From positions 21,825 through 85,824 of the forward strand of contig CALVBW010000023.1 in assembly GCA_944325945.1 (NCBI GenBank): a stretch of 64,000 nucleotides of DNA. Direction: 5' to 3'. The DNA comes from Candidatus Gastranaerophilales bacterium (lineage in GTDB: Bacteria; Cyanobacteriota; Vampirovibrionia; Gastranaerophilales; Gastranaerophilaceae). This document shows, piece by piece, positions 1,733 to 52,863 of the stretch (position 1 is its first letter; each line of letters starts with the position of its first letter). A program made the translations under genes and the position numbers. The notes beneath the pieces are model-generated. The model did no database searches. It worked only from the letters and a program-made list of their open reading frames with translations, and was not told the DNA's origin.

Positions 1733-2809
1733 TTAATCACCTATGCAAACCGCCTGTAGATTGTTATTGTTACGGTAGGTGTAGCTCCAGCTCGTACTGG
1801 TAGAGGAAAAGCCGCGGCGGCCGTACCCGATGCCGCTACCATACTCCTCACCGGACCAAACGAGGAAAGATGAGCCTTGAGAGGCTGTGAAGCCAAGCTC
1901 TGTTACTTTGTCATAGTCAAGTGTTAAATTGCGTGCATCGCCTTTGGCGCCTATGCCTGATGTGTTGTATACATAGTTTGCTATATCTGCTAATTGTGTA
2001 GCTGTTGGCATTTTACTTATACCTCCGCAGGCTTTTATAGCACCTGCCCAGTAATCACTTTTATGATAGCATTCTTTTATTCCAAGGTCACCTTTTAATT
2101 GTTCACATTCCGCCTCTGTAATAGGCTCAGGGAAAAACGGAGCAGTAAAACAAGTATTTCCCATTTTGAACGCACAGTTTCTTCCGTCAAGCGATTTAAC
2201 ATTAATAGAGCGTAAATCTTTTTGCTGAGTATTAGGAGTTTTAAATCCTGTGGTATCGTAAAGAATAGCTAAACAGGAAGTACCTGTAAATTGATTAGTA
2301 AAGGGCTGCTCTTTACACTCGGGATTATATGCAATAATCCCTGTAATACCGTTAGCGAATTGTACGCCGATGAGTTCGGTATCCCAATCATCCTGCCCGA
2401 AGTTGGAGGCATTTTTAATTTCTGTCATGTCGACTTCTTCTCCTTCAGCACCCCAGTAGACTTTGTCTTCAAAACAGGACATAATATCATTATTAGAACA
2501 AACTTTTGTAATTTTAAAGTATTTGCCTAAAGCACCGACAAAGTCAGCAGTAGATCTGTAGCCTGCCAGAACCTGCTGTGTATTCATTTGTTTAAGAGCT
2601 TCTTCTAATTTTCTTTCAAAGACAGACGCGGAAGTATTCCAGGTTTTGTTCTGATAATTCGCAATCAAAGTCGGAATAGTCATAGCGGCCACAACGCCTA
2701 TTATGCCGAGGGTGATAAGCACCTCAGCGAGGGTAAACGCGGCTTTTTTAGAAGATACTAAGTTACTAAGGCAGTAAGGCACTAAGAATTTACTGTGAGT
2801 TTCGCTCAC
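1733..2809 (-). CDS. Prepilin-type (type IV pilin-like/pseudopilin) protein, paralog A, with a DUF1566/FISUMP-like C-terminal domain
   Basis: N-terminus (GTG)SETHSKFLVPYCLSNLVSSKKAA-FTLAEVLITLGIIGVVAAMTIPTL is a class III signal (cleavage/methylation motif, Glu at +5, hydrophobic helix). The true start is uncertain; see the upstream ATG/G11 finding. Confidence 0.8.
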   Translation of the reverse strand: MSETHSKFLVPYCLSNLVSSKKAAFTLAEVLITLGIIGVVAAMTIPTLIANYQNKTWNTSASVFERKLEEALKQMNTQQVLAGYRSTADFVGALGKYFKITKVCSNNDIMSCFEDKVYWGAEGEEVDMTEIKNASNFGQDDWDTELIGVQFANGITGIIAYNPECKEQPFTNQFTGTSCLAILYDTTGFKTPNTQQKDLRSINVKSLDGRNCAFKMGNTCFTAPFFPEPITEAECEQLKGDLGIKECYHKSDYWAGAIKACGGISKMPTATQLADIANYVYNTSGIGAKGDARNLTLDYDKVTELGFTASQGSSFLVWSGEEYGSGIGYGRRGFSSTSTSWSYTYRNNNNLQAVCIGD

Positions 2810-2815
2810 ATATTT

Positions 2816-2877
2816 GTCATTCCGAACTAGTTTCGGAATCTCTTTATTATGAGATGCTGAAACTGGTTCAGCATGAC
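2816..2877. repeat. Two palindromic repeat units in opposite orientation (2816-2842 GTCATTCCGAACTAGTTTCGGAATCTC; 2851-2877 GAGATGCTGAAACTGGTTCAGCATGAC)
   Basis: Read directly. They lie inside the stop-free leader of gene A. Confidence 0.8.
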
Positions 2878-2894
2878 CGGAGGTTAAGCTACTG

Positions 2895-2905
2895 CCCCCC
2901 CCCCC
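2895..2905 (-). repeat. Homopolymer tract: C11 on the plus strand, G11 on the coding strand of gene A
   Basis: Counted from the sequence (actgCCCCCCCCCCCtgagt). It lies 12 codons after an SD-ATG (ATG 2940-2942). Confidence 0.9.
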
Positions 2906-2975
2906 TGAGTGAAAAGTAGTCGTGATGCGTATTTGCGCCCATTTTTTAAACCTCCAAATATCCTGTTACTGTTTT

Positions 2976-3009: not shown

Positions 3010-4059
3010 TTATTCCTCAATAACCTCGTAGTGATATTTTGGATTTTCTGCTAATCTTTTTTCTATTTCTTCAAAAGTTAAAAGCCCCTGTGTTGCTCCG
3101 AATTGGGAAACAACTCCCGCTGAATTTACGGAGGCATACATCAAAGATTTGCCTAAATTACGGTTTGTACGCTGTAAAGCCGCGCAGAATGTTGATGCAA
3201 AAGCATCGCCCGCCCCGAGTGTTGATACAACAGGCCCGTCAAAAATCGGACAGTGGTAGTAATTATTTCCGTCATAGGCATAGGCGCCGTTTCCGCCGTC
3301 TGTGATTACTATTACCTGATAGTCGCAAACCTTTAATTTTTTGAACATTTCTTTTAGATCCGGATGGATTAATTGATCGGAAAATTTTTCGTCGCGTGTA
3401 TCAGGACGTATTTGAATTCCTGTTGCCATTGACGCTTCATCTTTATTCATTACAACGATTTGCGCTGTTGCAATGATTTGTTTTAAGTAGTTAAATCCTT
3501 TTTTAATGCTTGTTGTGCCTGCGTTAAAACATACAAAAGTCCCGTTTTCTTTTGCAAAATTAACTATATCATCCAGAACCTTGTTGCTTTCGCCGTTTAA
3601 CGGCGCAATATATAGAAGAGTAGAATTTTTAATGGCTTCAAAGTTGATTTCAGACTTTTGAATTAAAGCGTTTGCGCCTCTGTGTGCCAGAACGGTTCTG
3701 TCGCCTTCAAAACTTGTCAGAATAATTGAAAACCCTGTGCTGACGTCATCTCTTTGAATCGCATTGGATAAATCAACATTTTTATTTTCAAAAGATTTGA
3801 AAATGCCTTTTGAATAAATATCGTTCCCGACTTTGAATATGGCGCTTGTTTTTAGCCCTAAATTCGCAAAGTTTACGGCTGTATTTATTCCTCCGCCTCC
3901 GACCTGTGAATCAAAATCCGTTATTTCCAGCTTAGCACCATACGGATAGCTCATAAATTCCGTTTTTTTATCTTTTCTGCATACGGATACAATATTTGCG
4001 TCGTCACTTTCCACAAATACATCCATTGTTGCGCTTCCTATTGTAATTACGTCAAACAT
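3010..4059 (-). CDS. PfkB-family carbohydrate kinase (ribokinase-like)
   Basis: 349 aa. Contains GGGGINTAVNFANLG and C-terminal DGGNGAY...STLGAGDAFASTF, the PfkB signature motifs. Confidence 0.8.
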   Translation of the reverse strand: MFDVITIGSATMDVFVESDDANIVSVCRKDKKTEFMSYPYGAKLEITDFDSQVGGGGINTAVNFANLGLKTSAIFKVGNDIYSKGIFKSFENKNVDLSNAIQRDDVSTGFSIILTSFEGDRTVLAHRGANALIQKSEINFEAIKNSTLLYIAPLNGESNKVLDDIVNFAKENGTFVCFNAGTTSIKKGFNYLKQIIATAQIVVMNKDEASMATGIQIRPDTRDEKFSDQLIHPDLKEMFKKLKVCDYQVIVITDGGNGAYAYDGNNYYHCPIFDGPVVSTLGAGDAFASTFCAALQRTNRNLGKSLMYASVNSAGVVSQFGATQGLLTFEEIEKRLAENPKYHYEVIEE

Positions 4060-4188: not shown

Positions 4189-6660
4189 ATGAAAATATAC
4201 TTTAACCCCGCAATTAAATCATACGTAAATAACAGGCAGCAAAATAAACATGAGGATAATAAGAATTTAAAAGAGAGTTATTCATATAATCCTGTTGCGT
4301 ACAGAGACTATAATATATCTTTTGGTGCAAGATTATTCAGGTCTCCTGAAAATTTTTACGAACAGGATTTTAACAAAGAAGGTATGCCGAAAACTTTGCA
4401 CCGGTATATTTACAACCCCGACAATTACAGCTTCAGAAAAACAATACCTCCGGCTCAGGCAATGAAAGAGGTTTTTGGCTCTATTTCAGGCATGCAGACA
4501 CTGGAAGAAGTGAAAGCGGCATTCCCTGACGAACCGTTATTTGCTGATTTGCATTCAAAATCATCAAGAAAAGCAAGAACAGGTCTGCTGGGCGAATTGG
4601 CACTCGTTCGTGAGGATGAGTTCTATGCCGGTAAATCTTTGTTTAAAAACGGTAAAGATGATCTTGGAATGTATATTTTGAAAAAGATATATGTTGAAGG
4701 TAAAACTTTAAAAGAAATAAATAAAGATTTCCAAAGGGATAAAAGTGTTGTTTACAATGGTTTGAGCGATATTCAATATACGGATGTTAAAGCGTTCGGT
4801 ATTAAGTTCCCTAAACGGGATTTTTGGAAGTCTTTTATTGCAACGCGTGAAGATTTTCCGTATGTTTATATCCCCAGAACAACAGAAGTAAGTAAATCTT
4901 CTGCACCGTCACATATTCATCGTGAAAATCCGGTAAAATATACTCCTAAAAAACGCTTTGAAGATTTGAAAGATTGGGAAATCGACAAAATTACCGATGC
5001 AATGCTGGAAGGTATGGGGGATAGAAAAGAAACTGAAAGACTTTTGAAAAAACGTAATTTACAAGATACTGAATCCCTGAATTTCGTTGCTAAATATATG
5101 GGTGAAATAAATTCTGTTGTGTTGGAAAAATTACATGTCTCAGAAGAAATGAAAGAATTTTTTGACAACTATGACAATTTAACTAAAACTCAGAAACAGA
5201 AATTCAAAGATTATTGGAAATCTCCTGAAACAAGAGAATTACGTTCACTTGTAATGTCGTCTACAATCAGATTTTTCTTTGATGTTTATGGTGTTGACGG
5301 CAACAATGAAGAATTTCAGGAGCTTTTGGAATATGCCCGCGGTATAAAAGCCAAAAGAGAAGCTCAGGAGCTTGAACATAATCGTATTCAAGCTGAGTAT
5401 GATGAAATGTTTAAAGAGCTTGATATGGCAGAACAAAATGAATTACCTAAAGAAGATATCAAAGAAGCACCGCAAATGACTTTTGATCAGCATCTTGAAA
5501 AAGAAGCAAAAAAATACAACGGTAAAGTATATACTTTTGTTGTTAAAGATGGTGTAAAAATTTCTATTGTGGCTAATCTTGCAGAATTAATGGCTCAAAA
5601 ATTCGCAAGTGAATATAGATTTTTACCAAATGCTTATGCAAAACAGTATACCAAGTTTGTATTAAATCATCATAAGGTTAATGACGATTATATGCTGTCT
5701 TTGTTATATAAAGTTGATAATTTGTTAGATCATGGCGATCTTTTATCCAATAAGCAATTATCTGATGATCCCGAAGAAAATAAAAAGTTAAATATGAATT
5801 ATGCCGAACAGATAAAAGAACAGCTTATGCCTGAAGAAAAAGTTAATTCTATAACTCAAGAAGTTTACAAAGATTTTGTGAAAAATAATAAAAAAACTTA
5901 TGATATAGCTACACAAACAATGATGGAGCTTGTTGTAAGGCTTATGAATTCTGAAGATAAAAGTGGTGATATTTCAGACGATATACAAAAGTTGTTGTCA
6001 GGCGATGAAGATGTAAATATAAAAATATCAGATATCTTAGATGTTGATTTTGTGGATATGTTACATAAAAACACATTAAGGAAAAGTAAACTTTTGAGAA
6101 GACATGATATCGCGTTTTTAAACCCTGAACAAATTTCTACAACGCTAAAGATGGCAGGATTTACTGATTTGTCTGTTGAAGATAAAAAATTTGTTGAAGA
6201 TACAATGGCAAAATATCAACAACCTTTGAATAATAAAGAGATAAGAAAGATAACCTACAAAATTATAGATAACCTGGTTAATTATCACACTGAAAAATCT
6301 GTTATACTGCAAGAACCTTATACGTTTTTATATAAAGCCGTTCAAAAAAATATAGAAAAGTATCCTGAAATCAAATCTTACCTTGTACAAACTTTGCAGA
6401 GATCATATGTACTGCCCCAAAATACTACTTTGCGGTATTTTATAGATGATAAAGCTGATAAGAATTTGTTAGAGGCTAAAACTGAAAGATTTATTATCGA
6501 ATTGATAACTAATGAGCCCGAAGTGGTTAGTCTGATGGCGTCAATAGATATGGAAAATATGGAAAAATATATTAAACCTTTTGATTACAATCTTTTTAGA
6601 AAAATGTGCGAATACAGACTTGTTGCATCACAATATTTTGCAAAAGCATCTAAAAAATAG
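4189..6660 (+). CDS. Large K/E-rich hypothetical protein (823 aa) with an N/Q-rich N-terminus and ISFGA motif
   Basis: ORF track; SD-like AAAGGAAG upstream of the ATG. No recognisable domain and no signal peptide. Confidence 0.7.
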   Translation: MKIYFNPAIKSYVNNRQQNKHEDNKNLKESYSYNPVAYRDYNISFGARLFRSPENFYEQDFNKEGMPKTLHRYIYNPDNYSFRKTIPPAQAMKEVFGSISGMQTLEEVKAAFPDEPLFADLHSKSSRKARTGLLGELALVREDEFYAGKSLFKNGKDDLGMYILKKIYVEGKTLKEINKDFQRDKSVVYNGLSDIQYTDVKAFGIKFPKRDFWKSFIATREDFPYVYIPRTTEVSKSSAPSHIHRENPVKYTPKKRFEDLKDWEIDKITDAMLEGMGDRKETERLLKKRNLQDTESLNFVAKYMGEINSVVLEKLHVSEEMKEFFDNYDNLTKTQKQKFKDYWKSPETRELRSLVMSSTIRFFFDVYGVDGNNEEFQELLEYARGIKAKREAQELEHNRIQAEYDEMFKELDMAEQNELPKEDIKEAPQMTFDQHLEKEAKKYNGKVYTFVVKDGVKISIVANLAELMAQKFASEYRFLPNAYAKQYTKFVLNHHKVNDDYMLSLLYKVDNLLDHGDLLSNKQLSDDPEENKKLNMNYAEQIKEQLMPEEKVNSITQEVYKDFVKNNKKTYDIATQTMMELVVRLMNSEDKSGDISDDIQKLLSGDEDVNIKISDILDVDFVDMLHKNTLRKSKLLRRHDIAFLNPEQISTTLKMAGFTDLSVEDKKFVEDTMAKYQQPLNNKEIRKITYKIIDNLVNYHTEKSVILQEPYTFLYKAVQKNIEKYPEIKSYLVQTLQRSYVLPQNTTLRYFIDDKADKNLLEAKTERFIIELITNEPEVVSLMASIDMENMEKYIKPFDYNLFRKMCEYRLVASQYFAKASKK

Positions 6661-6696: not shown

Positions 6697-6709
6697 AATG
6701 GTTTTTATA

Positions 6710-9024: not shown

Positions 9025-9825
9025 TTATAGCCACGGATAGTCATCCGGTATTTTCCAGCCGCTTTTTTTGATAACACTGCCGCAACCTCTGTATAAAGTA
9101 GTATTTGAATTATTTTCATTATAGCAGTCAGATTTATTGTTGTTTAATGTGGCGGACTCATTATAGAATAAAAATTTTCCGTCTTTCGCGCTTAAAATCA
9201 TCCAAAAAATATCTTTACCGAAACAATTAGGGGACGAAAAACCATTTAAATCAACATCAAAAGATATATTAGTATAATCAAAATACTTACATGACCCATC
9301 ATCATTATATTCCTTACAAGAGGAATTATCTAACAACATACGGATTATTACATTATTAGAAAGCAAAAAAATTCTGCCTTCAAGATTTCGAGATTCAACC
9401 GCGCCATTTGGGTAGGAAGTAGTAATTCCCACCTCCCTGTAAGAAGTATACCCGAAATCTTTTTGGATTTTTAAATTTGGAGCAAGGTAATTATCAAAAA
9501 CATTATTAACGAAATCCTCTTTGTTAAAACTTGTATCATCAGTGTGAATTCCGCTTGCGGCTTTAGACATCCAGGTAGAAGGGTCGCCATGTTCAACCTG
9601 AGCCATTTGTAACGCCTGCGATAAAATTGAATATGTTTGTTTTAGTTTAACTTCAAACTGCTTTTTCTGATAATTGCTAACCAACGTCGGGATCGTCATA
9701 GCAGCCACAACTCCGATTATGCCGAGGGTTATCAAGACTTCAGCGAGGGTGAAGGCGGGTTTTTTAGAAGATACTAAGTTACTAAGGCAGTAAGGCACTA
9801 AGAATTTACTGTGAACTTCGCTCAC
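9025..9825 (-). CDS. Prepilin-type protein, paralog B
   Basis: Conserved (GTG)SEVHSKFLVPYCLSNLVSSKKPA-FTLAEVLITLGIIGVVAAMTIPTL; pilin-like DVDLNGFSSPNCFGKDIFWM; C-terminal GWKIPDDYPWL. The ORF track extends to TTG 9870. AGGA lies 7 nt before GTG 9823-9825. With a C10 tract, the ATG at 9923 would be in frame. Confidence 0.8.
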   Translation of the reverse strand: MSEVHSKFLVPYCLSNLVSSKKPAFTLAEVLITLGIIGVVAAMTIPTLVSNYQKKQFEVKLKQTYSILSQALQMAQVEHGDPSTWMSKAASGIHTDDTSFNKEDFVNNVFDNYLAPNLKIQKDFGYTSYREVGITTSYPNGAVESRNLEGRIFLLSNNVIIRMLLDNSSCKEYNDDGSCKYFDYTNISFDVDLNGFSSPNCFGKDIFWMILSAKDGKFLFYNESATLNNNKSDCYNENNSNTTLYRGCGSVIKKSGWKIPDDYPWL

Positions 9826-9874: not shown

Positions 9875-9883
9875 GGGGGGGGG
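9875..9883 (-). repeat. Homopolymer tract: G9 on plus, C9 on the coding strand of gene B
   Basis: Counted from the sequence (tttcGGGGGGGGGcgact). It lies 13 codons after the SD-ATG at 9921-9923. Confidence 0.9.
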
Positions 9884-10439: not shown

Positions 10440-11879
10440 TTATGATATTACGGTGAATTTTTCTTTAAGCTTTTCAACAAGCGGATTTTCTATTTTTTTT
10501 ATTTTTGATTTGTCAAGAATAATATGACCTTCGCGTTCAATTGTTTGAACCTGAGAGAGCGCATCTTCGTAACGCATTTTGCCTCTGGCGACCAGTTTTG
10601 CAAGATTATTAACATATTTTTGTTGATTTTTCAGCGGATAATTTTCTAATACCTGCCACAGAGGTTTGCTTTGTCTGTCGGAATTTATTTGTTTTTTCGC
10701 TAAAGCTACATTTGAAAGTGTATTTGGTCCGCCTTCGGATTTAGCTTTTAAATGTTCAACCGAGACCATTCCGGGGTTAAATAATCTGTCACCTATTATA
10801 TCAGGGTCTGCATCACGGAATTTCAAAATTAAAGCGTCTGCACTTCTCGATGATGTCGGCAAATTCATTGCTATATCAAGCATTTTTTGCTTTAATGCTT
10901 TGTCCGGCATATTTTCCAGCAGTTTGTCCAGATCATATACAAATGCTTTGTTACTGAATGCCACGTGTACCGGTATGCCTTCAATCATACCGATATTTTC
11001 GGCGCAAAGTTTTTCAAGTTTTTTGTAACCTTTCATCTCTGCTGTTTTTCTCATTTTTTCGATAATTGCAATACGCACGGCATCTTTATCTGTTTCGTAT
11101 TTCTGGTAATTTTTTTCGTAAAATACGGATTTTCTGCCCGGAGCTTTAACATTTTTAAAATCAAACACCTGTTTCACAAATGTTGATGATAAGGGTCTGT
11201 TGCCGTGGTTTAAGTTTTCATTTTGCAGTAGATCAAGAAGTTTTTGCATACGGTTTTTGAGGTTGCCGTCGGACATTTTTTCCGTAATTTTTGTTATTTT
11301 ATATGAGAATTCTTTTAAACTGAATTCTTGTTTGATAGGCTGGTCATACAATTTTTTATCAATAGTTTCCATAAATTTAAAGAACGGCTGTATATATTCT
11401 TGAGGAAGTTCAGCGCCGAGAGTTTTTATGGCGTCAAATTTAGGTTTTTGGATTCGTCTGAAATTGGAGCGTGTTGTTTTGTACCAGTTTTTAAAAAGCT
11501 GCGGAAGATCAATATCAGGAGTTTCTTTTGCCGCCTCTTCTATCCTTTCAAAAACTTCTTTTTCAATAGGTTCAAGATATTTGTCTTTGTACGGCTTGAG
11601 TTTCATTACAACGTCGCTTATCGGTCCTTTGAAAAATCCGCGTTTTTTCATTTTTGTTAATTGGTCGCTGGATATCATTTTGTCTCCGGAATACAGGCAT
11701 GTCATATATTTGCCCAGTTTTTTAAATTCTTTTATTGACATTGGAGAACTGCCGGTGAAATTTACTGTGTCATATAATGGTTGTGTTTTGACAGATAAAT
11801 TGTTACGGGAATAATTATACTGATTATTCTCTGTTTTTCTTGCGTGTATGTTAAATAAATTTACCGGTAAAATTTTCAT
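10440..11879 (-). CDS. Hypothetical protein with an N/Q-rich N-terminus (VNFTG motif) and a C-terminal HNH nuclease motif
   Basis: 479 aa. Residues 371-403, MVSVEHLKAKSEGGPNTLSNVALAKKQINSDRQ, fit the H-N-N(H) beta-beta-alpha-Me pattern. Confidence 0.7.
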   Translation of the reverse strand: MKILPVNLFNIHARKTENNQYNYSRNNLSVKTQPLYDTVNFTGSSPMSIKEFKKLGKYMTCLYSGDKMISSDQLTKMKKRGFFKGPISDVVMKLKPYKDKYLEPIEKEVFERIEEAAKETPDIDLPQLFKNWYKTTRSNFRRIQKPKFDAIKTLGAELPQEYIQPFFKFMETIDKKLYDQPIKQEFSLKEFSYKITKITEKMSDGNLKNRMQKLLDLLQNENLNHGNRPLSSTFVKQVFDFKNVKAPGRKSVFYEKNYQKYETDKDAVRIAIIEKMRKTAEMKGYKKLEKLCAENIGMIEGIPVHVAFSNKAFVYDLDKLLENMPDKALKQKMLDIAMNLPTSSRSADALILKFRDADPDIIGDRLFNPGMVSVEHLKAKSEGGPNTLSNVALAKKQINSDRQSKPLWQVLENYPLKNQQKYVNNLAKLVARGKMRYEDALSQVQTIEREGHIILDKSKIKKIENPLVEKLKEKFTVIS

Positions 11880-15056: not shown

Positions 15057-15085
15057 TTGCAAATATATTTAAAATATGGTATGAT
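15057..15085 (+). promoter_or_regulatory. Putative sigma70-type promoter of pilin locus C (TTGCAA-17 nt-TGgTATGAT)
   Basis: TTGCAA 15057-15062, 17-nt spacer, TATGAT 15080-15085 with an upstream TG. AGGAGA and ATG 15109 follow. Confidence 0.5.
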
Positions 15086-15135
15086 AAGTTCATTACAGGA
15101 GAAAAAATATGGGAAATAAAGAGTTTAAAAATCTC

Positions 15136-15144
15136 GGGGGGGGG
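15136..15144 (+). repeat. Homopolymer tract G9 on the coding strand of gene C
   Basis: Counted from the sequence (atctcGGGGGGGGGcgact). It lies 9 codons after ATG 15109-15111. Confidence 0.9.
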
Positions 15145-15196
15145 CGACTCCTCTAAGTAGGCAGGGCAAGGGTTCTGGCGATATACGTTGGAAAAA

Positions 15197-15236
15197 GATA
15201 CTAAGATACTATGGCACTAAGATAGTAAGAGGTAAC
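15197..15236. repeat. Tandem 8-bp array GATACTAA GATACTAT GGCACTAA GATAGTAA GAGGTAAC, an inverted counterpart of the pilin-leader array at 15566-15600
   Basis: Read directly. The reverse complement contains TCTTAGTGCC and CTTAGTATCTT, matching the conserved leader. Confidence 0.7.
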
Positions 15237-15536
15237 AGTCGGATTAGTAAATCCGACTTACAATATGTCATCCTGAACTGCCTGAGGCAGGACAACACAC
15301 TGAACATTGGTGGGACTTACCATGTCATCCTGAACTTGTTTCAGGATCTCAAAAGATGCACCCCCGCCCCCAGAATTTCAAACACTCGCAAGCTTATGTT
15401 GAAATTCAACCCCCGCCCTCAAGGGGTGAGGGTAAGCCCCTTGAGCGAAGCTCACAGAAAACACACACCTCACTTTACTCACCTCACTCACTCTAGTCAC
15501 GTTAAACAAGAGACCCTGAAACGAGTTCTGGGTGAC
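15237..15536. repeat. Mosaic of short palindromic repeats inside the stop-free leader of gene C
   Basis: AGTCGGATT-agta-AATCCGACT (15237-15258), GTCATCCTGAACTGCCTGAGGCAGGAC (15267-15293), GTCATCCTGAACTTGTTTCAGGATCTC (15324-15350), CCCTCA-agggg-TGAGGG (15416-15432), GAGACCCTGAAACGAGTTCTGGGTGAC (15510-15536). Confidence 0.8.
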
Positions 15537-15542
15537 AAAGAT

Positions 15543-16310
15543 GTGTGCGAAGCTCACAGTAAATTCTTAGTGCCTTACTGCCTTAGTAACTTAGTATCTT
15601 CTAAAAAGACCGCGTTTACCCTTGCGGAGGTTTTAATAACCCTCGGCATAATCGGAATTGTAGCAGCAATGACAATTCCGACGCTTATATCAAATTATCA
15701 GAAAAAAATTACTGTTTCAAAATTGCAAAAAGCACATTCAACACTTAGTAATATGACTAAGCTTTTGTATGCTGACGGTGTATACAATGCTTTTTCGGGA
15801 ACTGTATCTTCTGAGAGAACCGAACAATTTTTTAATTCATATGTTTTACCGTATTTTAAATCTCCCGTTGTATACAAGGACCGTGTTTGTCCGTATACGG
15901 GCACCACAGAGGACTGTTTTCCTTTTAAATATCCTAATAATGATGTCGTAAATTCTAATGTTAAGACTATTTGGAATTACGGACGTATATATTTTACAAC
16001 ATCTGATAAGACTTCTTATTTTATAAATATAATGAAGTATATTGACCCGGACAACCCCGAGGACGGTCGTGAGTATAGAACTTCTCCCGAAGTTTGGGTT
16101 GATTTGAACGGAGCAGACGGACCAAATACTATGGGAAAAGATATTTTTTATTTCAAAACGGATTTTTCTAAAGGTCTTGTTATGAGTTACTGTGCCTCCA
16201 ACAGTTATGAGTATATAAACAGGGACTGTTCCAAAGATGGATATGGCTTTTGCTGCGCGGCAAAAATAATGCTCGACGGCTGGAAAATAAAAGACGATTA
16301 CCCGTGGTAA
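15543..16310 (+). CDS. Prepilin-type protein, paralog C
   Basis: (GTG)CEAHSKFLVPYCLSNLVSSKKTA-FTLAEVLITLGIIGIVAAMTIPTL; WVDLNGADGPNTMGKDIFYF; C-terminal GWKIKDDYPW. The ORF track opens at TTG 15336, and the frame is open back to 15144. Confidence 0.8.
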   Translation: MCEAHSKFLVPYCLSNLVSSKKTAFTLAEVLITLGIIGIVAAMTIPTLISNYQKKITVSKLQKAHSTLSNMTKLLYADGVYNAFSGTVSSERTEQFFNSYVLPYFKSPVVYKDRVCPYTGTTEDCFPFKYPNNDVVNSNVKTIWNYGRIYFTTSDKTSYFINIMKYIDPDNPEDGREYRTSPEVWVDLNGADGPNTMGKDIFYFKTDFSKGLVMSYCASNSYEYINRDCSKDGYGFCCAAKIMLDGWKIKDDYPW

Positions 16311-21198: not shown

Positions 21199-21972
21199 TT
21201 AATTTTTATATTCCTCATCAAGTTCATAAGGTTCGTAATGAAGTTTTCCGTCTTTCATAAATGTATAACTTGTATTATATAGGGAAGTTGAATCAGGATA
21301 AATACCTAAATCAAAAGTGTCTGCTCCCAGCTGGTTGGGACCGGCAGGACCATTAACATCTATAATAATCTGACCGCATCGAGGTGTGGTATAATAAATT
21401 ATTTCTTGTTCACCTGTTTCTTCATTGATTATAGGATTCCCCGCTTCATCTTTTTTTATCGCTGTGTATGTATAGTTACAATTACCTTGATAATTAAACC
21501 TTTGTACCATTATTCTCATGCCATTTTTTAATACGGCAGTTGGGGCGTAATACATGGTCTTACCATAGGTTACACCATTGTTATATTTTTTTTGCTCAAA
21601 TTTTATAGTCTCAGGCCAACAACTTTTATCGCCTGTATTACAAATTTTGGTTACTGATAAATTTTGAGTTAATAATTCCAATATTTCTAAATGAGATAAG
21701 TTTAAGCTGAATATATCACGATAACTGCTAAAACCATTCTGTGCCATTGTTATTTGTACGGCATTTTGTATTATTGAATACCCCGTTTTTGCCTGATTTA
21801 CAAGCTCTTTTTCTTTATAATTGGCAACAAGAGTTGGTATCGTCATAGCCGCCACAACGCCGATTATGCCGAGGGTTATCAAGACTTCAGCGAGTGTGAA
21901 GGCGGTTTTTTTAGAAGATACTAAGTTACTAAGGCAGTAAGGCACTAAGAATTTACTGTGAGCTTCGCTCAC
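21199..21972 (-). CDS. Prepilin-type protein, paralog D
   Basis: (GTG)SEAHSKFLVPYCLSNLVSSKKTA-FTLAEVLITLGIIGVVAAMTIPTL; IIDVNGPAGPNQLGADTFDL. The ORF track extends to TTG 22017. With a C10 tract, the ATG at 22070 would be in frame. Confidence 0.8.
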   Translation of the reverse strand: MSEAHSKFLVPYCLSNLVSSKKTAFTLAEVLITLGIIGVVAAMTIPTLVANYKEKELVNQAKTGYSIIQNAVQITMAQNGFSSYRDIFSLNLSHLEILELLTQNLSVTKICNTGDKSCWPETIKFEQKKYNNGVTYGKTMYYAPTAVLKNGMRIMVQRFNYQGNCNYTYTAIKKDEAGNPIINEETGEQEIIYYTTPRCGQIIIDVNGPAGPNQLGADTFDLGIYPDSTSLYNTSYTFMKDGKLHYEPYELDEEYKN

Positions 21973-22021: not shown

Positions 22022-22030
22022 GGGGGGGGG
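22022..22030 (-). repeat. Homopolymer tract: G9 on plus, C9 on the coding strand of gene D
   Basis: Counted from the sequence (atttcGGGGGGGGGcgact). Confidence 0.9.
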
Positions 22031-24285: not shown

Positions 24286-26022
24286 TTAGCCAAATATAGC
24301 ATCAATACCTGTAGCTTCTTTAACTTTTTGCCACCAGGATTTTTGTGTACCATCACTTGCAATTGTCATACTGTAGCAATATTCAAGAAACATTTCTCTT
24401 GACATTTTTAAATCTCTATCAGGATACCATGGATTAATAAGAATAACTTCATCTTCGGTTACACGTTTAATAGTAAATGCGTGTAACCCGCTATCATTTG
24501 GTGTATCTCCAACTTTAAAAGAAGCGGTAGCAATTTTGTCAGATTTATTATCTGTCTCAAAATCTTCTTGTAGCTTATCAAGCATTTTATTAAGAGCGCG
24601 ATTTGTTATTCTTATGTTACCATCTATTTCATCAATAGACTGATAAGAATATGATGTTGCTGTTGATATAGGTAATACTTTATTATCCAGCAATGCTGTT
24701 GATGATAAAATTGGAAGATTTTCATAGTTTGTACTAGAATAATATTCAGATTTTTTGCCGGTTAAAACATATATTGCATCATGTTCCCTTCCTCCCGCAA
24801 GGATATTTTCTTCTTCCTTGCCGGTTACCATGCCGGCAATATGCCAATAATCGTCAACTGACAAATTATTTGCTTCAAGTGTTTGGTTGACTTCCTTTCG
24901 GTATTTTTCAAAAGCTGCTTCCAGTAATATTACATCAGGGTCACCTTTAGAATATTGTGTTCCGGCTTTTGATAAAATATCTTTGACTTCATCTTCTGTA
25001 AAAGAATATTCTCCAGTTATAAATACTTCTAATTTATCCTCTTTCAAAGATTCCGCAGCTGATTTGGCACCCGGAAAATTAAAAGTATACACCTTTTTGT
25101 CGTCTACTATTTGTTCAGTTCTTAAACTTTGTAAATATTCCTGACCGTCTGTAGTATTTCTAATTGCGTTTATTGTTGCCAATAAATAACAATCACCTTG
25201 ACCTTTTTGGAAAGAATTGCCATAATAATTATCTAAACCTAAATCCTTCTTTCCAAGTCTTTTGGAGGGAGGATCGGTTGGTTTTACCGGTGATGGATCT
25301 ACCGGTGTCGGATTGTCCGGGTTTTTAATACCCTTTTCCCAATCTTTTAAATTTTTAGTGCGTTTCATTTGCAGTTGTTCATTATCAACAGCTTTAAAAA
25401 TCACATCACCCTGTTCATTTTTTTCTAAAATAAATGCCATATCCTTAAATCTGGACATATAAGTACCGTCGGCTTCGTTATATGTGAGTTTTGTGAATTT
25501 GTTTTCTCCATAATCGGAAGGCAGCTCCATCATTAAAATTCTTGGCATACTTCCGTCTTCAGGCATAACGGTATTTTTCGGAATTCTGACAGTTCCTCTG
25601 TATATTTTGTTTGTAATTCCTGCTTCTCTTGCATCAATTTCTATATTTTCAAGTTTACCGTTTACAAATCCGAAGTCTTCCGCTTTTGGTGCTGTTTCCT
25701 CACTTTCTTCAATACTTGTATTGCCAAGTTCAATCATGAATTGCAAAAATTTTCGGCTTTCAACATCTTTTAATCCTTTGCTATCAAGATATGCTCTTGC
25801 TTCTTCTTCAGTAATGGTTTTATCTTCAATTGCTTTGGCTAAATCGGATTTTAGTATATCAAGTTCTTCCTGACTGATTTCACCGTCATTAGATGTCTCA
25901 ATTTTAGCCCAAATTGTGTTTAAATCTTCGGAGAGATTTTCTTTTTTCATACCGGCTTTTAATTTATTCCAATCAATATTTCCGATATTACCAATTTGAA
26001 TTTTATTTTCATTATTTGGCAC
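24286..26022 (-). CDS. Calpain-like (papain-fold, C2-like) cysteine protease with an N-terminal EF-hand-like loop
   Basis: QKGQGDCYLLATINAI (Cys), GLHAFTIKRV (His) and LINPWY (Asn) follow the calpain triad spacing. N-terminus has ETSNDGEISQEEL. No signal peptide. Confidence 0.6.
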   Translation of the reverse strand: MPNNENKIQIGNIGNIDWNKLKAGMKKENLSEDLNTIWAKIETSNDGEISQEELDILKSDLAKAIEDKTITEEEARAYLDSKGLKDVESRKFLQFMIELGNTSIEESEETAPKAEDFGFVNGKLENIEIDAREAGITNKIYRGTVRIPKNTVMPEDGSMPRILMMELPSDYGENKFTKLTYNEADGTYMSRFKDMAFILEKNEQGDVIFKAVDNEQLQMKRTKNLKDWEKGIKNPDNPTPVDPSPVKPTDPPSKRLGKKDLGLDNYYGNSFQKGQGDCYLLATINAIRNTTDGQEYLQSLRTEQIVDDKKVYTFNFPGAKSAAESLKEDKLEVFITGEYSFTEDEVKDILSKAGTQYSKGDPDVILLEAAFEKYRKEVNQTLEANNLSVDDYWHIAGMVTGKEEENILAGGREHDAIYVLTGKKSEYYSSTNYENLPILSSTALLDNKVLPISTATSYSYQSIDEIDGNIRITNRALNKMLDKLQEDFETDNKSDKIATASFKVGDTPNDSGLHAFTIKRVTEDEVILINPWYPDRDLKMSREMFLEYCYSMTIASDGTQKSWWQKVKEATGIDAIFG

Positions 26023-32928: not shown

Positions 32929-34932
32929 ATGTCAGTAAAATCAGTACAGTTAGCAAGCGTAGATTCAAAGCGTAATTATAATAATCAAAAACAAAATAAC
33001 GCCGTTTCATTCGGTAATGCAGGAAATCCTGTAATTACATTGATGGATGCAATAGACAGAGGCGGTTTTGCGGCTTCATTTATCATGCAGGATTTTCTTG
33101 GCATGGCAGGTCCCCGTGTATTAACAGGCATGTTCCGTAATCATGATAAAACCGGACAGTTAAATTGGGATTTTGCAAAGAAGGAAGGTATTCGTGAAAT
33201 TTTAAGCGGTCCCAGTGCATTTATTATACCTGCGTTTTTGATGGCGGGTATTAAAAGACTTTCAGGCAGCGCCAATAATGTTCCTATAGATTTTATTAAC
33301 GGATTAGGCGAAACTTTTAACGATTACGCTAAATCAAATATTAATACATTAAGTGATGCTGCTGTAACAAAACACGGTTTTTATAAAAATGTGTTTAAAA
33401 ATATGTTATCCGCGTCGACAAATGAAGTTTTGCAGGGTGAAGAACTTGAACAAACCGCTAAAACATTCGCGGATAAATTGATTGCAGCTGAAAAAGCTCC
33501 GAAAAAAGGTTTCTGGAAACATTTAACAGGGAAAAAGGTTGAAGGTTCAGCGCAAGATTTGCAGCATGAACTTCTGGAAGAATTTGTAAAACTCCGTAAA
33601 CAATATCTTGGCGCGGATAGTGACAAGGTCGTTGCCGAATATGTTGGTAAAGACGGTAAAAAAATTGCTTCATCATTTAAATCTATTCTCGGGCATATGA
33701 ATGATTATGCAAATGATGCAATTAAGCATGTAAATAAAAAATTCAAAGATGTTAAAACTCTTACGCCTGAAAATGTTGAAAAATTTGTAAAAACATTGAG
33801 CCAGAGACGTTCAGGCACAAGATTTTTATCAAATATCAGTATGTGGCTTGCTGTTGTAGGGTTTTATACAATTATTCCTAAGCTGTATAACCACGTAACA
33901 AAAGGAAGAGACCCGGGATTGGACGGTCTTGATATTCAGGATCAAAATGTAAATAAAACAGCAAATCCTACATTCTCCAAAGACTCAAAAGAAGAAAATA
34001 AGGATGAAAAAACAGAAAAAACTGATAATAGTGTAAAAGCTGAACCTTCATTTACAGGTTTGTCAGGTGTAATGGCAAAAGTTGGCAGAACTGTTAGTGA
34101 GACCGGCGGATTTAAAAAATTGTCGGATGCGTTTGAATTTGACGGTGCAACAATGTCAATGCCTGCGATGTTGACTCTGTTGTTCGGTTTTTGTCTGCCG
34201 CCAAGGTTGAAACATGCTCAAAGCAATACAGACAGAAAAGAAATTTTGTTTAGAGATTTTACAAGTTTCTTATCAATTCTGTTCGGTGCTAAAATTCTTA
34301 CACGTGTATTCTCGGATATATTTGCAAAGGCATCAGGTCTTGCTTTGAATACCAAACCTCATAATAGCGGCGATTCAATTTTCAAAAAAATCTGGCACTA
34401 TGTTTATCCTTCAGGAGGGGTGCAGGTTCTTGACGATACAAGAATTAAAGCAAATTACAGCAATGTAGCATCATACAAAGACGGTATAAATGATATGTTC
34501 AGGTTCGTTGATAAAAACGGCGGTAATGTCGGTAAAATGCTTAACATAGATAAAGATATTAAAGCAGCCGCTACGGAAATTCTCGGTAAAGCTCCGGACA
34601 AATCAATGAAACTTGCTGATATCATTAAAGCATTTGATAAATCAAAAGATTCGGAAGCTTACAAAAATATACTTAAAAAGCTTGCTGATGAAGGCAATAT
34701 GCTTGTAAAACGCGCCAAAACTTACAATAGTTTGTTCGGTTTTGTGTCAACGATATTCCTTGTACCGGGTCTGATGGTATGGATTTCAAGACATTGTGAA
34801 AAAATGACAAAAGAACGTATTGCAGAACAAAAAGAACAATCTATGCAGAATATGGCAAAACAAACTCAGGTGCCTGATTCTATGAGAGTTGTGACAAATA
34901 AACCGACTATGGCAGGTTTTTTAAATAAATAA
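32929..34932 (+). CDS. Large hypothetical membrane protein (667 aa) with an N/Q-rich N-terminus and VSFGN motif
   Basis: Several hydrophobic segments. The N-terminal module (LGMAGPRVL...AKKEGIREIL) resembles the tandem paralogs at 29896-31154. Confidence 0.7.
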   Translation: MSVKSVQLASVDSKRNYNNQKQNNAVSFGNAGNPVITLMDAIDRGGFAASFIMQDFLGMAGPRVLTGMFRNHDKTGQLNWDFAKKEGIREILSGPSAFIIPAFLMAGIKRLSGSANNVPIDFINGLGETFNDYAKSNINTLSDAAVTKHGFYKNVFKNMLSASTNEVLQGEELEQTAKTFADKLIAAEKAPKKGFWKHLTGKKVEGSAQDLQHELLEEFVKLRKQYLGADSDKVVAEYVGKDGKKIASSFKSILGHMNDYANDAIKHVNKKFKDVKTLTPENVEKFVKTLSQRRSGTRFLSNISMWLAVVGFYTIIPKLYNHVTKGRDPGLDGLDIQDQNVNKTANPTFSKDSKEENKDEKTEKTDNSVKAEPSFTGLSGVMAKVGRTVSETGGFKKLSDAFEFDGATMSMPAMLTLLFGFCLPPRLKHAQSNTDRKEILFRDFTSFLSILFGAKILTRVFSDIFAKASGLALNTKPHNSGDSIFKKIWHYVYPSGGVQVLDDTRIKANYSNVASYKDGINDMFRFVDKNGGNVGKMLNIDKDIKAAATEILGKAPDKSMKLADIIKAFDKSKDSEAYKNILKKLADEGNMLVKRAKTYNSLFGFVSTIFLVPGLMVWISRHCEKMTKERIAEQKEQSMQNMAKQTQVPDSMRVVTNKPTMAGFLNK

Positions 34933-37332: not shown

Positions 37333-39228
37333 ATGCACATATTAAATATCAATCAACAGAATGAAAACTTTAGATATGCTCCGTCCTTTGGAAGAACAAG
37401 TAACTTTCATACTATAGAGAAATTTCAGCTAAAGCCTGAAGAAATTGAGAAAATTTCGCAAATGTCTGAAAGTCTTTCAAAAATTTCTGAATTTTTTGCA
37501 TCCTTGAACGGGATTTTGCAAAAAAAATTCAAGTCAAATTATCCGGGTCTGGTTGCCGGCGAAAAAATAAAAGGGTTTTTGTTTGATTCAATTTTGGGAG
37601 GTAATGGTAAAAAACTTCAGATTGTTCGATTAAATACACGACCTGATAGTGAAGAACTTTTGACGTTCGGACTATTAGATTCAAGCAATAAAAATATACT
37701 CCGTTATAAAGTGAATAAAAATGGCGATGTCGTTGTTATGAAAGAAAAATTGAATTCTGAACCCGTAGACACCGGTATTTTTTCTGAATGGAATTTGGAT
37801 ACCTTTATAGAGGAATTGAAATATTTAAATATTTATTCTCAGAATTTTAATGAAGTGAACAGAAAATTAACAGGTACCGAGTCTATAGTTGTTATGCATA
37901 AGCTTTTGGATAAAATTATCGCTGTTAAGAAAAGCGAAGGGATTAAAAATAGCATTGAAAATGTAGTAGAAAGTTTTAACGAGGTCTCCTCCGAATTTAA
38001 TAAGAATTCTTGGCGCGGGGTTGTTGAAATTAAACGGGCATATTTTGGAAAATTTGCACAAGAAAAATCTAAAAGTATGTTTTTTAAAGATCCGGTAAAC
38101 TCAAAGATATATTCATATACTCCGGCAAAAAGTGTCGCCGATAATCGTATTTTCAGGTTAATGGTCTTTGATGAATCCGGCAGGGTTAATGACGGATTTT
38201 TGTTCTTTTCGGACGGTAAAGTGGCAAGAATACTACCGGAAGCTCTTAATTCGGATTTTATCCGCGGTCGTAAGATGGAATATTTGTCAGACGATGAGAT
38301 AAAAAATTTGAATCTTAAAGGTAATTTGTCTGTGGTGGATCAAGGTTTGAAAGATTTTAAAGCTTTTATTGTTGAAAAGCGTTCTTTTAAAAAGAAAAAT
38401 ACAAATGCAGCTAAAGAAAATAGTTTGTCGGGAGCTATCAATAAAATCCCTCAAATAAAACCGCAAGGCGTTAAAAATGTTTCTAAGGAACAAAGAAAAG
38501 TACAGCCTAAAAAACAAATGGCATCTCCAATAATTAAATCAGGAACGCAAAATATCACCGCTAAAAAAACTGTTGCACAGAATAAAAATATTATAGAAAA
38601 GGTTGAATCTCATACAATTAATAACAGCAATAAAACGTCTTTAGTAACACAAAGTGTTTCTCAAACTGTAAATAAAACTGAATTTATAAATACAACGCTT
38701 ACTTCTCTTGCGGAAAAACTTACAAATTTATTTGATACCCCTGTTGAAGAAAGAAGTTCGCATCTCGTTCATGAAAAGCTTCAAAACGGAAGAATTTTTT
38801 CCGGCAGAGTCTCTTTTATTGCATCTGACGGTGCTCAAATTACTGTATCAAGGATTAAATCTCCCAGATATGTCGATTTTATGTACTATTCAATAAAAGT
38901 TTCCGACGGAAAATCTCATTATGTAATGAATTTGGATCCTGAAGCCGGTTTGATTTTGGAAAGCACTCCTGAAGGGAAAGTTATTATTGATAAAAAACAA
39001 CGTGTAAAACATCTTTCTAAAAAGGAATTTATTGAGCTATATCCGCAAGCAATAAATTTGGAGCGTTATTTAAAAGAACTTTTTGAGTTTAAAACCGATG
39101 GCAAAAGAAAGGTTGTAACTTCTAATTTAAAAATGAAAGGGCTTACTTTAAAAGAAAGGGAAAAGGAAGTCCTGAAAGCGCTTGGACAATCTCCGGATAT
39201 TGCACTTGATTCGTTGTTTAAACTTTAG
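37333..39228 (+). CDS. Large K/E/N-rich hypothetical protein (631 aa) with an N/Q-rich N-terminus and PSFGR motif
   Basis: ORF track. No recognisable domain or signal peptide. Confidence 0.7.
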   Translation: MHILNINQQNENFRYAPSFGRTSNFHTIEKFQLKPEEIEKISQMSESLSKISEFFASLNGILQKKFKSNYPGLVAGEKIKGFLFDSILGGNGKKLQIVRLNTRPDSEELLTFGLLDSSNKNILRYKVNKNGDVVVMKEKLNSEPVDTGIFSEWNLDTFIEELKYLNIYSQNFNEVNRKLTGTESIVVMHKLLDKIIAVKKSEGIKNSIENVVESFNEVSSEFNKNSWRGVVEIKRAYFGKFAQEKSKSMFFKDPVNSKIYSYTPAKSVADNRIFRLMVFDESGRVNDGFLFFSDGKVARILPEALNSDFIRGRKMEYLSDDEIKNLNLKGNLSVVDQGLKDFKAFIVEKRSFKKKNTNAAKENSLSGAINKIPQIKPQGVKNVSKEQRKVQPKKQMASPIIKSGTQNITAKKTVAQNKNIIEKVESHTINNSNKTSLVTQSVSQTVNKTEFINTTLTSLAEKLTNLFDTPVEERSSHLVHEKLQNGRIFSGRVSFIASDGAQITVSRIKSPRYVDFMYYSIKVSDGKSHYVMNLDPEAGLILESTPEGKVIIDKKQRVKHLSKKEFIELYPQAINLERYLKELFEFKTDGKRKVVTSNLKMKGLTLKEREKEVLKALGQSPDIALDSLFKL

Positions 39229-51825: not shown

Positions 51826-52863
51826 ATGGAAATATTAATTTTTATAGGGGGATTTGTATTCGGAGCTGTATGTGTATTTATACCTTTTTTTATGGCTCAA
51901 AAAAATACCAGAGCTGATTTTGAAAACCTTGCTAACAGAATTTTTAAAGAAAATTCCGTTGAATTTTCCGCGCAAAATCGCGAACGTCTGGATGAGTTTT
52001 TTAAACTTTTTAAAGAACGAATTGCGGATTTTGAGAAAAGAACCGAAGATAATTTTAAGCAGGAAAAAGAAAATTTTACTATATTTGATTTGAATATTAA
52101 AAATTTTCTTGAAACCGGTAAAAAGATTTCAATGGATGCAAATGCTCTTGTTAATGTTATGAAGTCCGACAACCGCACCTCCGGCAAGTGGGGCGAAATT
52201 GTTCTTGAAAGAGTTCTGGAAGCTTCCGGTTTGAGAAAAGACGAAGAATATAAAATTCAGTCCGGCTCATCTGACGGCAGACCGGATGCAACGGTTTTTC
52301 TGCCTGATAACAGATGTATTTATATTGATTCCAAAACTTCGTTTGCTTCATTTGAAGGTTATGTTAATTCAGATAATGAATACGAAAAAGAAAATTATTT
52401 AAAACAGTTTATTGACTCGACTAAGGCACATATTTCCGGTCTCGCAAAGCGGGATTATTCATCTGATGATCGGTCTCCGGATTATGTCTTGATGTTTATA
52501 CCAATTGAAAGTTGTTATGCAATGCTGTTTTGTGAGGATTGTGCTCTTTGGGATTTCGCGTGGAAAAATAAGGTTATGCCGGTATCTCCGTCAACACTGC
52601 TTGCTGCTTTGAAAATTATTAATTCATTCCATGTCGTTGACAGGCACAATAAAAATGCGCTTGAGGTTACCAGAATATGTTCCAGAATGATTGATAAATT
52701 TTCCGACTTACTCGGTGATTTGACTAAAATTAAAAATGCCTATAATTCTGCCGTTACAAGGCTCACCGGCAAAGACAATATTATTAATCAATTGACCAGA
52801 ATTGAAGAGCTCGGAGTGAAAGGTTCTAAAAGTATACCGGAGATTCCTGAAGAGATTAATTAA
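51826..52863 (+). CDS. rmuC: DNA recombination protein RmuC
   Basis: ORF trimmed to MEILIFIGGF, which follows AAGGAGAG; TGgTATAAT at 51798-51806. Contains GKWGEIVLERVLE...DATVFLPD...IDSK...DYVLMFIPIE. Confidence 0.85.
   Translation: MEILIFIGGFVFGAVCVFIPFFMAQKNTRADFENLANRIFKENSVEFSAQNRERLDEFFKLFKERIADFEKRTEDNFKQEKENFTIFDLNIKNFLETGKKISMDANALVNVMKSDNRTSGKWGEIVLERVLEASGLRKDEEYKIQSGSSDGRPDATVFLPDNRCIYIDSKTSFASFEGYVNSDNEYEKENYLKQFIDSTKAHISGLAKRDYSSDDRSPDYVLMFIPIESCYAMLFCEDCALWDFAWKNKVMPVSPSTLLAALKIINSFHVVDRHNKNALEVTRICSRMIDKFSDLLGDLTKIKNAYNSAVTRLTGKDNIINQLTRIEELGVKGSKSIPEIPEEIN

Follow-up and report, generated by a model that had tools for sequence, protein, structure and literature searches.

A poly-G tract and a stop-free, repeat-built leader at a pilin-like gene of Candidatus Gastranaerophilales point to translational phase variation of a type IV pilin-like multigene family

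A stretch of 64 kb (36% GC) of contig CALVBW010000023.1, from the Candidatus Gastranaerophilales bacterium assembly GCA_944325945.1 (positions 21,825 to 85,824, forward strand), is here called the window and numbered from its first letter. It carries a type IV pilin-like gene, locus C, whose 5' region raises a question. A start codon with a well-placed Shine-Dalgarno (SD) sequence leads into a run of nine G residues and soon afterwards into a stop codon, while the reading frame of the pilin itself is open across a long stretch of repeats between this run and the pilin. How, then, is the pilin translated, and what keeps the repeats free of stop codons? The explanation favoured here, with a probability of roughly 0.78, is slipped-strand translational phase variation of a type IV pilin-like multigene family of which locus C is one member. 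Phase-variable genes of this kind would number at least four, and probably more than ten per genome.

The features of locus C and of its three paralogs in the window are listed in Table 1. The candidate promoter is the sole promoter-like site that a promoter scan detected on the plus strand upstream of the pilin C coding sequence (CDS); within the link, as the DNA between the tract and the conserved proximal leader is termed, the scan detected no plus-strand site of this kind. The tract begins nine codons past ATG 15109, and the frame of this ATG, as assembled, encodes MGNKEFKNLGGGRLL and ends at TAA 15154-56. Promoter, SD, ATG 15109, G9 (15136-15144) and stop (15154-15156) all lie where a preliminary description of this DNA had placed them. 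The pilin frame is open from 15129 to GTG 15543, that is for 138 codons (133 if counted from 15144), and continues to the stop codon at 16308-10. Peptides such as VILNCLRQD, VILNLFQDL and ETLKRVLGD are encoded in it. When the length of the tract is changed in silico, G9 gives 15 aa, whereas G10, G7 or G13 gives an open reading frame (ORF) of 399-401 aa from ATG 15109 (400 aa for G10). Lengths that yield the full-length product are referred to as ON and those that yield the truncated one as OFF.

Between 15145 and 15542, stop codons number 13 and 8 in the two remaining forward frames and 4, 9 and 11 in those of the reverse strand, but the pilin frame contains none, and only 2 of 5000 dinucleotide-preserving shuffles left the pilin frame stop-free. 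These counts agree with the earlier claim that an open stretch of 133 codons would be unlikely by chance.

Table 1. Features of pilin locus C and of the paralogous loci A, B and D in the window (AF2, AlphaFold2 model; pN/pS, ratio of nonsynonymous to synonymous polymorphism).
Feature	Position	Strand	Basis
Pilin locus A: ATG 2942, G11 at 2895-2905 (coding strand), 85-nt open link, conserved leader from 2809; ON at G10 or G13	1733..2942	-	
Pilin locus B: ATG 9923, C9 at 9875-9883 (coding strand), 49-nt open link, leader from 9825; ON at C10 or C7	9025..9923	-	
Pilin locus C: ATG 15109, G9 tract		+	
Sigma-70-like promoter of locus C: TTGCAA 15057-62, 17-nt spacer, TATGAT 15080-85, TG extension	15057..15085	+	promoter scan
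SD sequence AGGAGA, ATG 6 nt further on	15097..15102	+	sequence
Start codon and 15-codon OFF-state mini-ORF (MGNKEFKNLGGGRLL, then stop), tract inside	15109..15156	+	
G9 homopolymer tract, proposed switch; OFF at G9, ON at G10, G7 or G13	15136..15144	+	in silico lengths and orthologous contigs
Stop-free link, 398 nt; spacer of dispersed hairpin-forming repeat modules, translated in the ON state	15145..15542	+	stop counts, shuffles, alleles, fold
Inverted degenerate copy of the CTTAGTNN octamer array, left arm of inverted repeat; part of conserved class-1 5' module	15195..15239	+	
Palindromic repeat module ATGTCATCCTGAACTTGTTTCAGGATCTC (VILNLFQDL)	15322..15350	+	sister copy from 15265; inverted partner 15510-15537
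Degenerate direct copy of the hairpin-plus-array leader module within the link (TTGAGCGAAGCTCACAGAAAACACACACCTCAC...)	15441..15500	+	direct repeat D1
Conserved proximal leader VCEAHSKFLVPYCLSNLVSSKKTA, up to predicted prepilin cleavage site between A and F	15543..15614	+	alignment
Mature type IV pilin-like protein C (FTLAEVLITLGIIG..., 231 aa) and stop codon	15615..16310	+	N_methyl/TIGR02532, AF2, pN/pS
Pilin locus D: ATG 22070, C9 at 22022-22030 (coding strand), 49-nt open link, leader from 21972; ON at C10 or C7	21199..22070	-	

The same design is repeated in the window, which encodes four type IV pilin-like proteins and no more, each with the N-terminus AFTLAEVLITLGIIG; its G or C runs of at least 7 nt also number exactly four, one lying 5' of each gene. 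Every locus begins with a strong SD and an ATG; the tract comes 9-13 codons later and is followed by a link without stops in the pilin frame. All are out of frame as assembled, and the full-length fusion arises only at a tract length of 10 (or 7, 13).

Relatives were found by means of a 22-nt piece of the conserved leader, which occurs at 43 places in about 10 metagenome-assembled genomes (MAGs). These are all Candidatus Gastranaerophilales or 'Cyanobacteria bacterium' (Melainabacteria), bar one probably mislabelled bin. The CAYLHN01 contigs (L001, L006 and L023), from a MAG labelled 'uncultured Muribaculaceae', carry Gastranaerophilales-type CTTAGT arrays on short contigs, probably as a result of mis-binning or mislabelling. 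Enough upstream DNA was available for 23 loci, namely 19 in related MAGs and the four of the window. In all 23, a strong SD precedes a start codon upstream of the tract (ATG in 22; TTG in L018, with AAGGAGG), and 6-13 codons lead to a tract of G7-G11 or C9. The link, of 73-485 nt, is stop-free in 22 of the 23 loci, with no stop in 6545 nt of pilin frame against 187 and 199 in the other two frames, and in as many loci a change of tract length toggles in silico between the full-length and the truncated product, as it does in the window. Copies of the same 22-mer away from pilin genes are different: in the 300 nt upstream of them, the three frames have 86, 85 and 83 stops per 4500 nt. Since non-pilin copies of the repeats carry stops in every frame, it is the pilin context, and not the repeats themselves, that accounts for the openness. 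The second pilin locus of L036 (leader near 6704) is the only one whose link is closed in the pilin frame, with 15 stops; its +1 frame has just 1 stop over 643 nt, a pattern suggestive of a second frameshift, of decay of this copy or of faulty assembly.

These counts bear on the view that translation of the pilin begins internally, at GTG 15543 or at ATG 15396 (used by gene callers), the short ORF from ATG 15109 through the tract being either unrelated or a regulatory upstream ORF and the open frame a by-product of repeat composition. In public annotations, OFF alleles do begin at internal codons, some of them at GTG 15543, giving products of 304, 266 and 257 aa. Loci B, C and D also have a weak SD-like GGTGA or AGGA that precedes the GTG by 6-7 nt. 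However, an internal start leaves the frame-specific openness unexplained, the links having no stops in one frame and about 190 in each of the others, and the repeats elsewhere about 85 per 4.5 kb in every frame. Neither the GTG nor any SD is conserved across loci or alleles. The GTG corresponding to 15543 is absent from many loci, including the locus C ortholog L044, and at locus C it sits within a hairpin (GTGAGCGAAGCTCAC). No conserved internal start was found among the 23 loci: SD-preceded internal starts are absent in 12 of them and not conserved in the rest. An internal start is thus considered highly improbable.

Tract length at these loci differs between assemblies at the level of DNA. 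Orthologs of locus C were located with neighbouring genes as exact-match anchors, which gave G9 in 10 of 10 other assemblies (11 copies with the window), and G10 forms were located by a protein search with the hypothetical G10 product. This search returned a 400-aa protein whose first 305 residues are identical. Its protein cluster comprises three distinct 400-aa forms on nine contigs, from nine samples, together with 304-aa OFF calls on twelve contigs. G10 is present on all nine ON contigs. Six of these match the window exactly over the 399 nt that follow the tract, and the other three differ from it at few positions. The proposal that G10 would join ATG 15109 to the pilin had been made from the window alone, and it is borne out by these alleles, which occur in nine independent assemblies and are called as 400-aa proteins.

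The G9 and G10 copies of locus C are closely related: over 1.25 kb their flanks show 0-6 nt of difference. Nine flanking haplotypes were distinguished, three of them with G10. Two of these three are 1-2 nt away from a G9 haplotype, but any two G10 haplotypes are separated by 5-6 nt or more and are not mutual nearest neighbours. Because G10 haplotypes are nearer to G9 haplotypes than to one another, the change between G9 and G10 happened at least twice. At locus A, G11 was found in three copies (the window and two assemblies) and the ON length G10 in one (L056). At locus B the tract is C9 in eight assemblies, with C8 in a single contig of low coverage. At locus D seven same-species assemblies have C9, as does an eighth contig (L066), in which another 5' peptide precedes the tract. 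The links of two divergent locus C alleles, L044 (434 nt) and L046 (386 nt), are made of different repeat modules and contain no stops in the ON frame against 8-13 in the other frames. Stops in the pilin frame of orthologous leaders, which the preliminary description had named as what would speak against its proposal, were looked for and did not occur: three link alleles are open in the ON frame only.

Homopolymer errors in sequencing or assembly could in principle mimic such a pattern, the true tracts being all 10 nt long and the genes ordinary ORFs that are always on. Each of the four window tracts misses the ON length of 10 by exactly one nucleotide, some contigs stop at or just past a tract (L067 and L073), and several contigs have low coverage (2-6x). 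However, independent assemblies concur, with ten G9 and nine G10 at locus C, seven C9 at locus D and eight C9 at locus B; contig names point to Illumina short-read assemblers, for which indel error is low; and tracts of 7, 8, 9, 10 and 11 nt have all been called, with ON and OFF lengths inside one MAG. Errors of this type are very unlikely because many independent assemblies agree on each length. Contigs that end at a pilin tract or within about 140 nt past it include L067 and L073 (contig ends), L055, L056 and L072. Such ends would fit assembly graphs that break at a length-heterogeneous homopolymer or at repeats.

A different reading of the same tracts is that G9 or C9 is a fixed functional state and that pilin is made constitutively at a low level by recoding, either through slippage of the RNA polymerase, adding a G, or through -1 ribosomal frameshifting. 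Lengths one short of ON do predominate: class-1 loci, defined by a conserved 5' switch module, mostly have G9, locus C has G9 in 11 copies, locus D has C9 in all same-species assemblies and locus B has C9 in 8 of 9. The stop three codons beyond the tract is conserved, and perfect re-pairing of tRNA-Gly is possible on a run of G. On the other hand, ON alleles exist at the level of DNA (G10, G7 and G8AG), G10 being the consensus in 9 assemblies of locus C; class-2 loci (G11, ON at 10 or 13) would need a shift in the opposite direction; and tracts vary from 7 to 11 nt, unlike a programmed slippery site, which is fixed in length. GGG and CCC are poor A-site codons for -1 slippage, and efficient transcriptional slippage has been documented mainly for runs of A or T. 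Recoding as the sole explanation therefore seems unlikely, but it may add leakiness on top of DNA-level switching.

Within single MAGs, the states of the paralogs are mixed. Most are OFF (typically G9, where ON is 10) and a few are ON, for instance L013 and L042 (G10), L037 (G7) and L028 (G8AG). The L028 tract (near 3780, MAG BRZ_BN__bin58) is G8 A G and not G10, so that it is in frame but interrupted, and it would be expected to lock the gene ON. Of the 36 long G/C tracts seen, 30 belong to the pilin family, and the other 6 are located at locus edges. A scan of JGI (Joint Genome Institute) metagenomes with the class-1 module gave 9 matches, mostly non-pilin copies of the repeat, and one new OFF locus with G10 (ON at 8 or 11). 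Further classes of 5' switch modules were seen in L003, L007, L008, L034 (MAG SIG32) and L090; one example, ...CATTAGGGGGGGGGTAGAAACGCTCTCGTAGTCTGGG, lies on the opposite strand to a leader-like repeat, and the G10 tract of the JGI contig, ON at 8 or 11, is another.

That most copies are out of frame as assembled, and that the second locus of L036 has an additional frame break in its link, might also be expected of decaying pseudogenes, that is, of a redundant pilin family frameshifted by chance at mutable tracts. Against this, the tract is the only lesion, links and CDS being intact in 22 of 23 loci, and ON alleles recur. The pN/pS ratio between alleles of pilin C is 0.40, which argues that the pilin genes are not decaying. 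Decay is hence scarcely credible as a general explanation. Comparison of pilin C with allele L078 showed a leader and N-terminal two thirds that are identical bar one codon, and 40 differing codons clustered in the C-terminal third (window 16000-16280, codons 154-246). This mosaic suggests recombination or gene conversion in the exposed head domain.

The identity of the encoded proteins as type IV pilin-like is consistent across the window. All four score above the curated cut-offs of PF07963 (21.4-23.6 bits; cut-off 21.2) and TIGR02532 (18.9-20.7; cut-off 16.3), and in protein C these matches run from the proximal leader (15543) onward. The predicted cleavage region, KKTA↓FTLAEVLITLGIIGIVAAMTIP (the arrow marks the site), has Ala at -1, Phe at +1 and Glu at +5, followed by a hydrophobic alpha-1 helix. 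Family relatives have Gly or Ala at -1, and some carry canonical short leaders (MKKLFA↓FTLAEV and MMKEKG↓FTLAEV). Ala at -1 is tolerated by PilD. The AlphaFold2 model of mature pilin C (predicted local distance difference test score, 93) has a helix at residues 3-53 and then five strands forming a beta head. Two Cys residues are near-invariant, and DUF6613 corresponds to the head domain in part of the family. In P0024, P0120 and L022, a partial duplicate of the prepilin N-terminus is present within the leader (...AFTLAEGATHVD...RRVAFTLAEVLITLG...), giving two tandem candidate cleavage motifs.

Canonical type IV prepilins have a class III signal peptide with a leader of 5-30 aa and the pattern G↓F...E5, in which Ala rarely replaces Gly at -1 and some 20 hydrophobic residues come after Glu at +5. 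The four window proteins resemble them in the FTLAE motif with Glu at +5, the hydrophobic alpha-1 helix, the matches to PF07963 and TIGR02532, and the relatives with MKK..G↓F or A↓F leaders. They differ in that the leader counted from the functional ATG is far longer, the -1 residue is Ala, and the head is without a solved structural match. From the sole conserved SD-ATG, the leader measures 169 aa in C, 67 aa in A and 56 aa in B and D, and about 40-190 aa overall when relatives are included; none of the window loci has the short basic leader (~5-30 aa) typical of a class III signal peptide.

What these long leaders are made of can be read from the link. At locus C, the tract is followed by the class-1 module, several GTCATCCTGAAC...GTTCAGGAT-type hairpin modules and a degenerate copy of the proximal leader. 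These modules are also present in ordinary intergenic DNA of the window and of the MAGs: for instance, the ATGTCATCCTGAACTTGTTTCAGGATCTC family has 8 copies in the window, intergenic sites included, against 0.46 expected. In the class-1 module, variable columns are evenly spread over codon positions 1, 2 and 3 (18, 23 and 20), so that it is the absence of stops, and not the leader peptide, that is under selection; selection at the amino-acid level was rejected on these counts. Of the two alternatives that had been offered for the repeats as coding sequence, toleration stands, since link alleles stay open, while selection as protein does not.

The proximal leader behaves differently from its neighbour. 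Its 54 nt at 15554-15607 are identical in all four window loci, whereas the adjoining, protein-constrained N-terminus has third-position differences in the alignment. This segment consists of about 4.5 tandem 8-nt units (CTTAGTGC CTTACTGC CTTAGTAA CTTAGTAT CTTC), at 15554-15607 and, on the minus strand, at 2745-2798, 9761-9814 and 21908-21961. The same octamer array, with a variable number of units, is a dispersed intergenic repeat in Gastranaerophilales MAGs (L001-L043). The variable link of locus C is flanked by a 45-nt inverted repeat, I1, whose arms (15195-15239 and 15556-15600) are 78% complementary; its left arm is conserved in 17 class-1 loci and absent from class-2 and class-3 loci. 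DNA inversion between the two arms was considered as the switch and rejected, for the link is inverted in 0 of 20 orthologous contigs, the reverse-strand frames contain 4-11 stops, and class-2 and class-3 loci lack the left arm.

The 5' region of locus C has a predicted RNA fold with a z-score of -5.65 relative to shuffles, in which the two octamer arrays form a long-range stem. An Rfam scan of the window detected a single tRNA and no match at locus C. As a tentative and rather doubtful extension, the inverted CTTAGTNN array may pair with the invariant 54-nt array in a long-range RNA duplex, in which case translation of the pilin and survival of its mRNA would need ribosomes travelling in frame and the OFF state would be tight. 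The invariant array may also serve as a recombination joint that reshuffles switch modules, link mosaics and pilin cassettes. If true, an RNA duplex combined with such a joint and with leaders of 40-190 aa cut by prepilin peptidase would be a new architecture of surface-antigen variation.

On the favoured explanation, phase variation at locus C would proceed as follows. Transcription would start from the promoter at 15057-85 and translation from the SD-preceded ATG 15109, passing through nine codons into the poly-G tract. With G9, ribosomes would stop three codons past the tract (OFF). A G10 tract, produced by slipped-strand mispairing during replication, would allow read-through of the 133-codon spacer and synthesis of a 400-aa precursor (ON). 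The spacer is a mosaic of the genome's dispersed palindromic repeats, kept stop-free but with its peptide unconstrained. Such a state would be expected of a leader that, relative to the class III signal peptide, is cytoplasmic and that prepilin peptidase cuts off at KKTA↓FTLAE. Because the leader would stay in the cytoplasm and be cut off, any stop-free sequence would be allowed in it; and because it must be translated yet would be discarded, dispersed repeats could accumulate there in a stop-free register. The sequences themselves establish the layout of the loci, the logic of the frames, the selection against stops and repeated changes of tract length in DNA, whereas how often switching occurs, cleavage of the long leader, assembly into pili and any selective advantage are inferred.

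Several points weigh against this proposal. We know of no experimental precedent for a class III signal peptide with a leader of 40-190 aa, and the residue predicted at -1 is Ala and not Gly. In a Foldseek search of the AlphaFold2 model against the PDB, no match had an E value below 0.3, which leaves the head without a solved structural counterpart. A Pfam search of 10 large window ORFs gave no Pil proteins, prepilin peptidase or assembly ATPase, and no dedicated search for a prepilin peptidase was made in the genome. As to the tracts, no G9 and G10 contigs with a strictly identical haplotype were found among the locus C contigs. Consensus lengths are strikingly uniform: all same-species assemblies have C9 at locus D, 8 of 9 have it at locus B, and most class-1 paralogs have G9. 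This could mean slow switching or another way of reading G9; these lengths come from consensus contigs, at which level mixed lengths inside one population are not visible.

Some neighbouring genes and earlier reports may be mentioned in relation to pilus function. PilA, B, C, D and T have been reported for one Gastranaerophilales genome (PMC5877343). Pfam matches among the 10 large window ORFs comprise ComEC, P-type ATPase, amylase, GcpE and others. The ComEC-type competence protein is encoded at 52856-55246 on the minus strand (Competence, DUF4131 and Lactamase_B domains), and for this reason the pilin-like proteins could serve in DNA uptake, instead of or besides adhesion or motility. Five large ORFs (479-823 aa) had no Pfam match at E <= 1e-4: 4189-6660, 10440-11879, 24286-26022, 32929-34932 and 37333-39228.

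The mechanism itself is already known from Neisseria pilC and from Campylobacter; what is new is the lineage, its use across a whole family, and the leader of 40-190 aa, translated and built of repeats. In the searchable literature, phase variation was not found to have been reported for Melainabacteria or Gastranaerophilales. In Neisseria gonorrhoeae and N. meningitidis, pilC phase-varies by an in-frame poly-G tract of G9-20 (PMC5953494, citing Jonsson et al. 1991). The present loci resemble it in several respects: a type IV pilus gene has a homopolymeric G tract near the 5' end of its coding sequence, a change of the tract by one nucleotide decides between a full-length and a truncated product, and at least two paralogs switch independently. 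However, PilC is a tip- or adhesin-type pilus protein with a Sec-type signal peptide and not a prepilin, and its tract lies directly in the signal-peptide region, whereas here it is found 70-490 nt upstream behind a repeat-built spacer and the whole pilin family carries the switch.

Other systems share single elements of this design. A Campylobacter jejuni genome has about 30 poly-G tracts (G8-G13), with G9 the modal length. As in the pilin family, many independent G/C tracts of 8-11 nt are found in genes for surface structures, G9 is the commonest and ON and OFF states are mixed in genomes, but the Campylobacter tracts are distributed over assorted glycosylation, capsule and flagellar-modification genes, in contrast to the 30 of 36 in one gene family reported above. 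The opa genes of Neisseria, with CTCTT pentamer repeats in the region coding for the signal peptide, are likewise a surface-protein multigene family: translation of every copy is switched by a repeat of its own, located in a leader that the mature protein lacks. In opa, however, the repeat unit is a pentamer where the pilin loci have a homopolymer, the leader is short and there is no spacer of mobile repeats. Rickettsia palindromic elements are dispersed palindromic repeats inserted in frame in protein-coding genes and resemble the link modules as hairpin-forming, dispersed modules in a stop-free frame inside a translated ORF. However, these elements persist in mature proteins, whereas the modules described here are in a leader that is presumably discarded and also in intergenic DNA.

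Melainabacteria and Gastranaerophilales are uncultured, non-photosynthetic relatives of the Cyanobacteria in animal guts, and to our knowledge almost nothing is known about how these bacteria deal with their host. Ten or more switchable pilin genes per genome, if true, would amount to stochastic variation of a surface fibre as in pathogens such as Neisseria and Campylobacter, and its presumed benefit would be escape from antibodies or from pilus-specific phages, or altered adhesion. The loci also constitute a natural experiment on how long and how arbitrary a prepilin leader can be, and on the ways in which a translated region can take up dispersed palindromic repeats. At present, gene callers place the starts of these pilin genes wrongly or truncate them, and the tract lengths present in metagenomic reads could serve as an ON/OFF phenotype for each sample.

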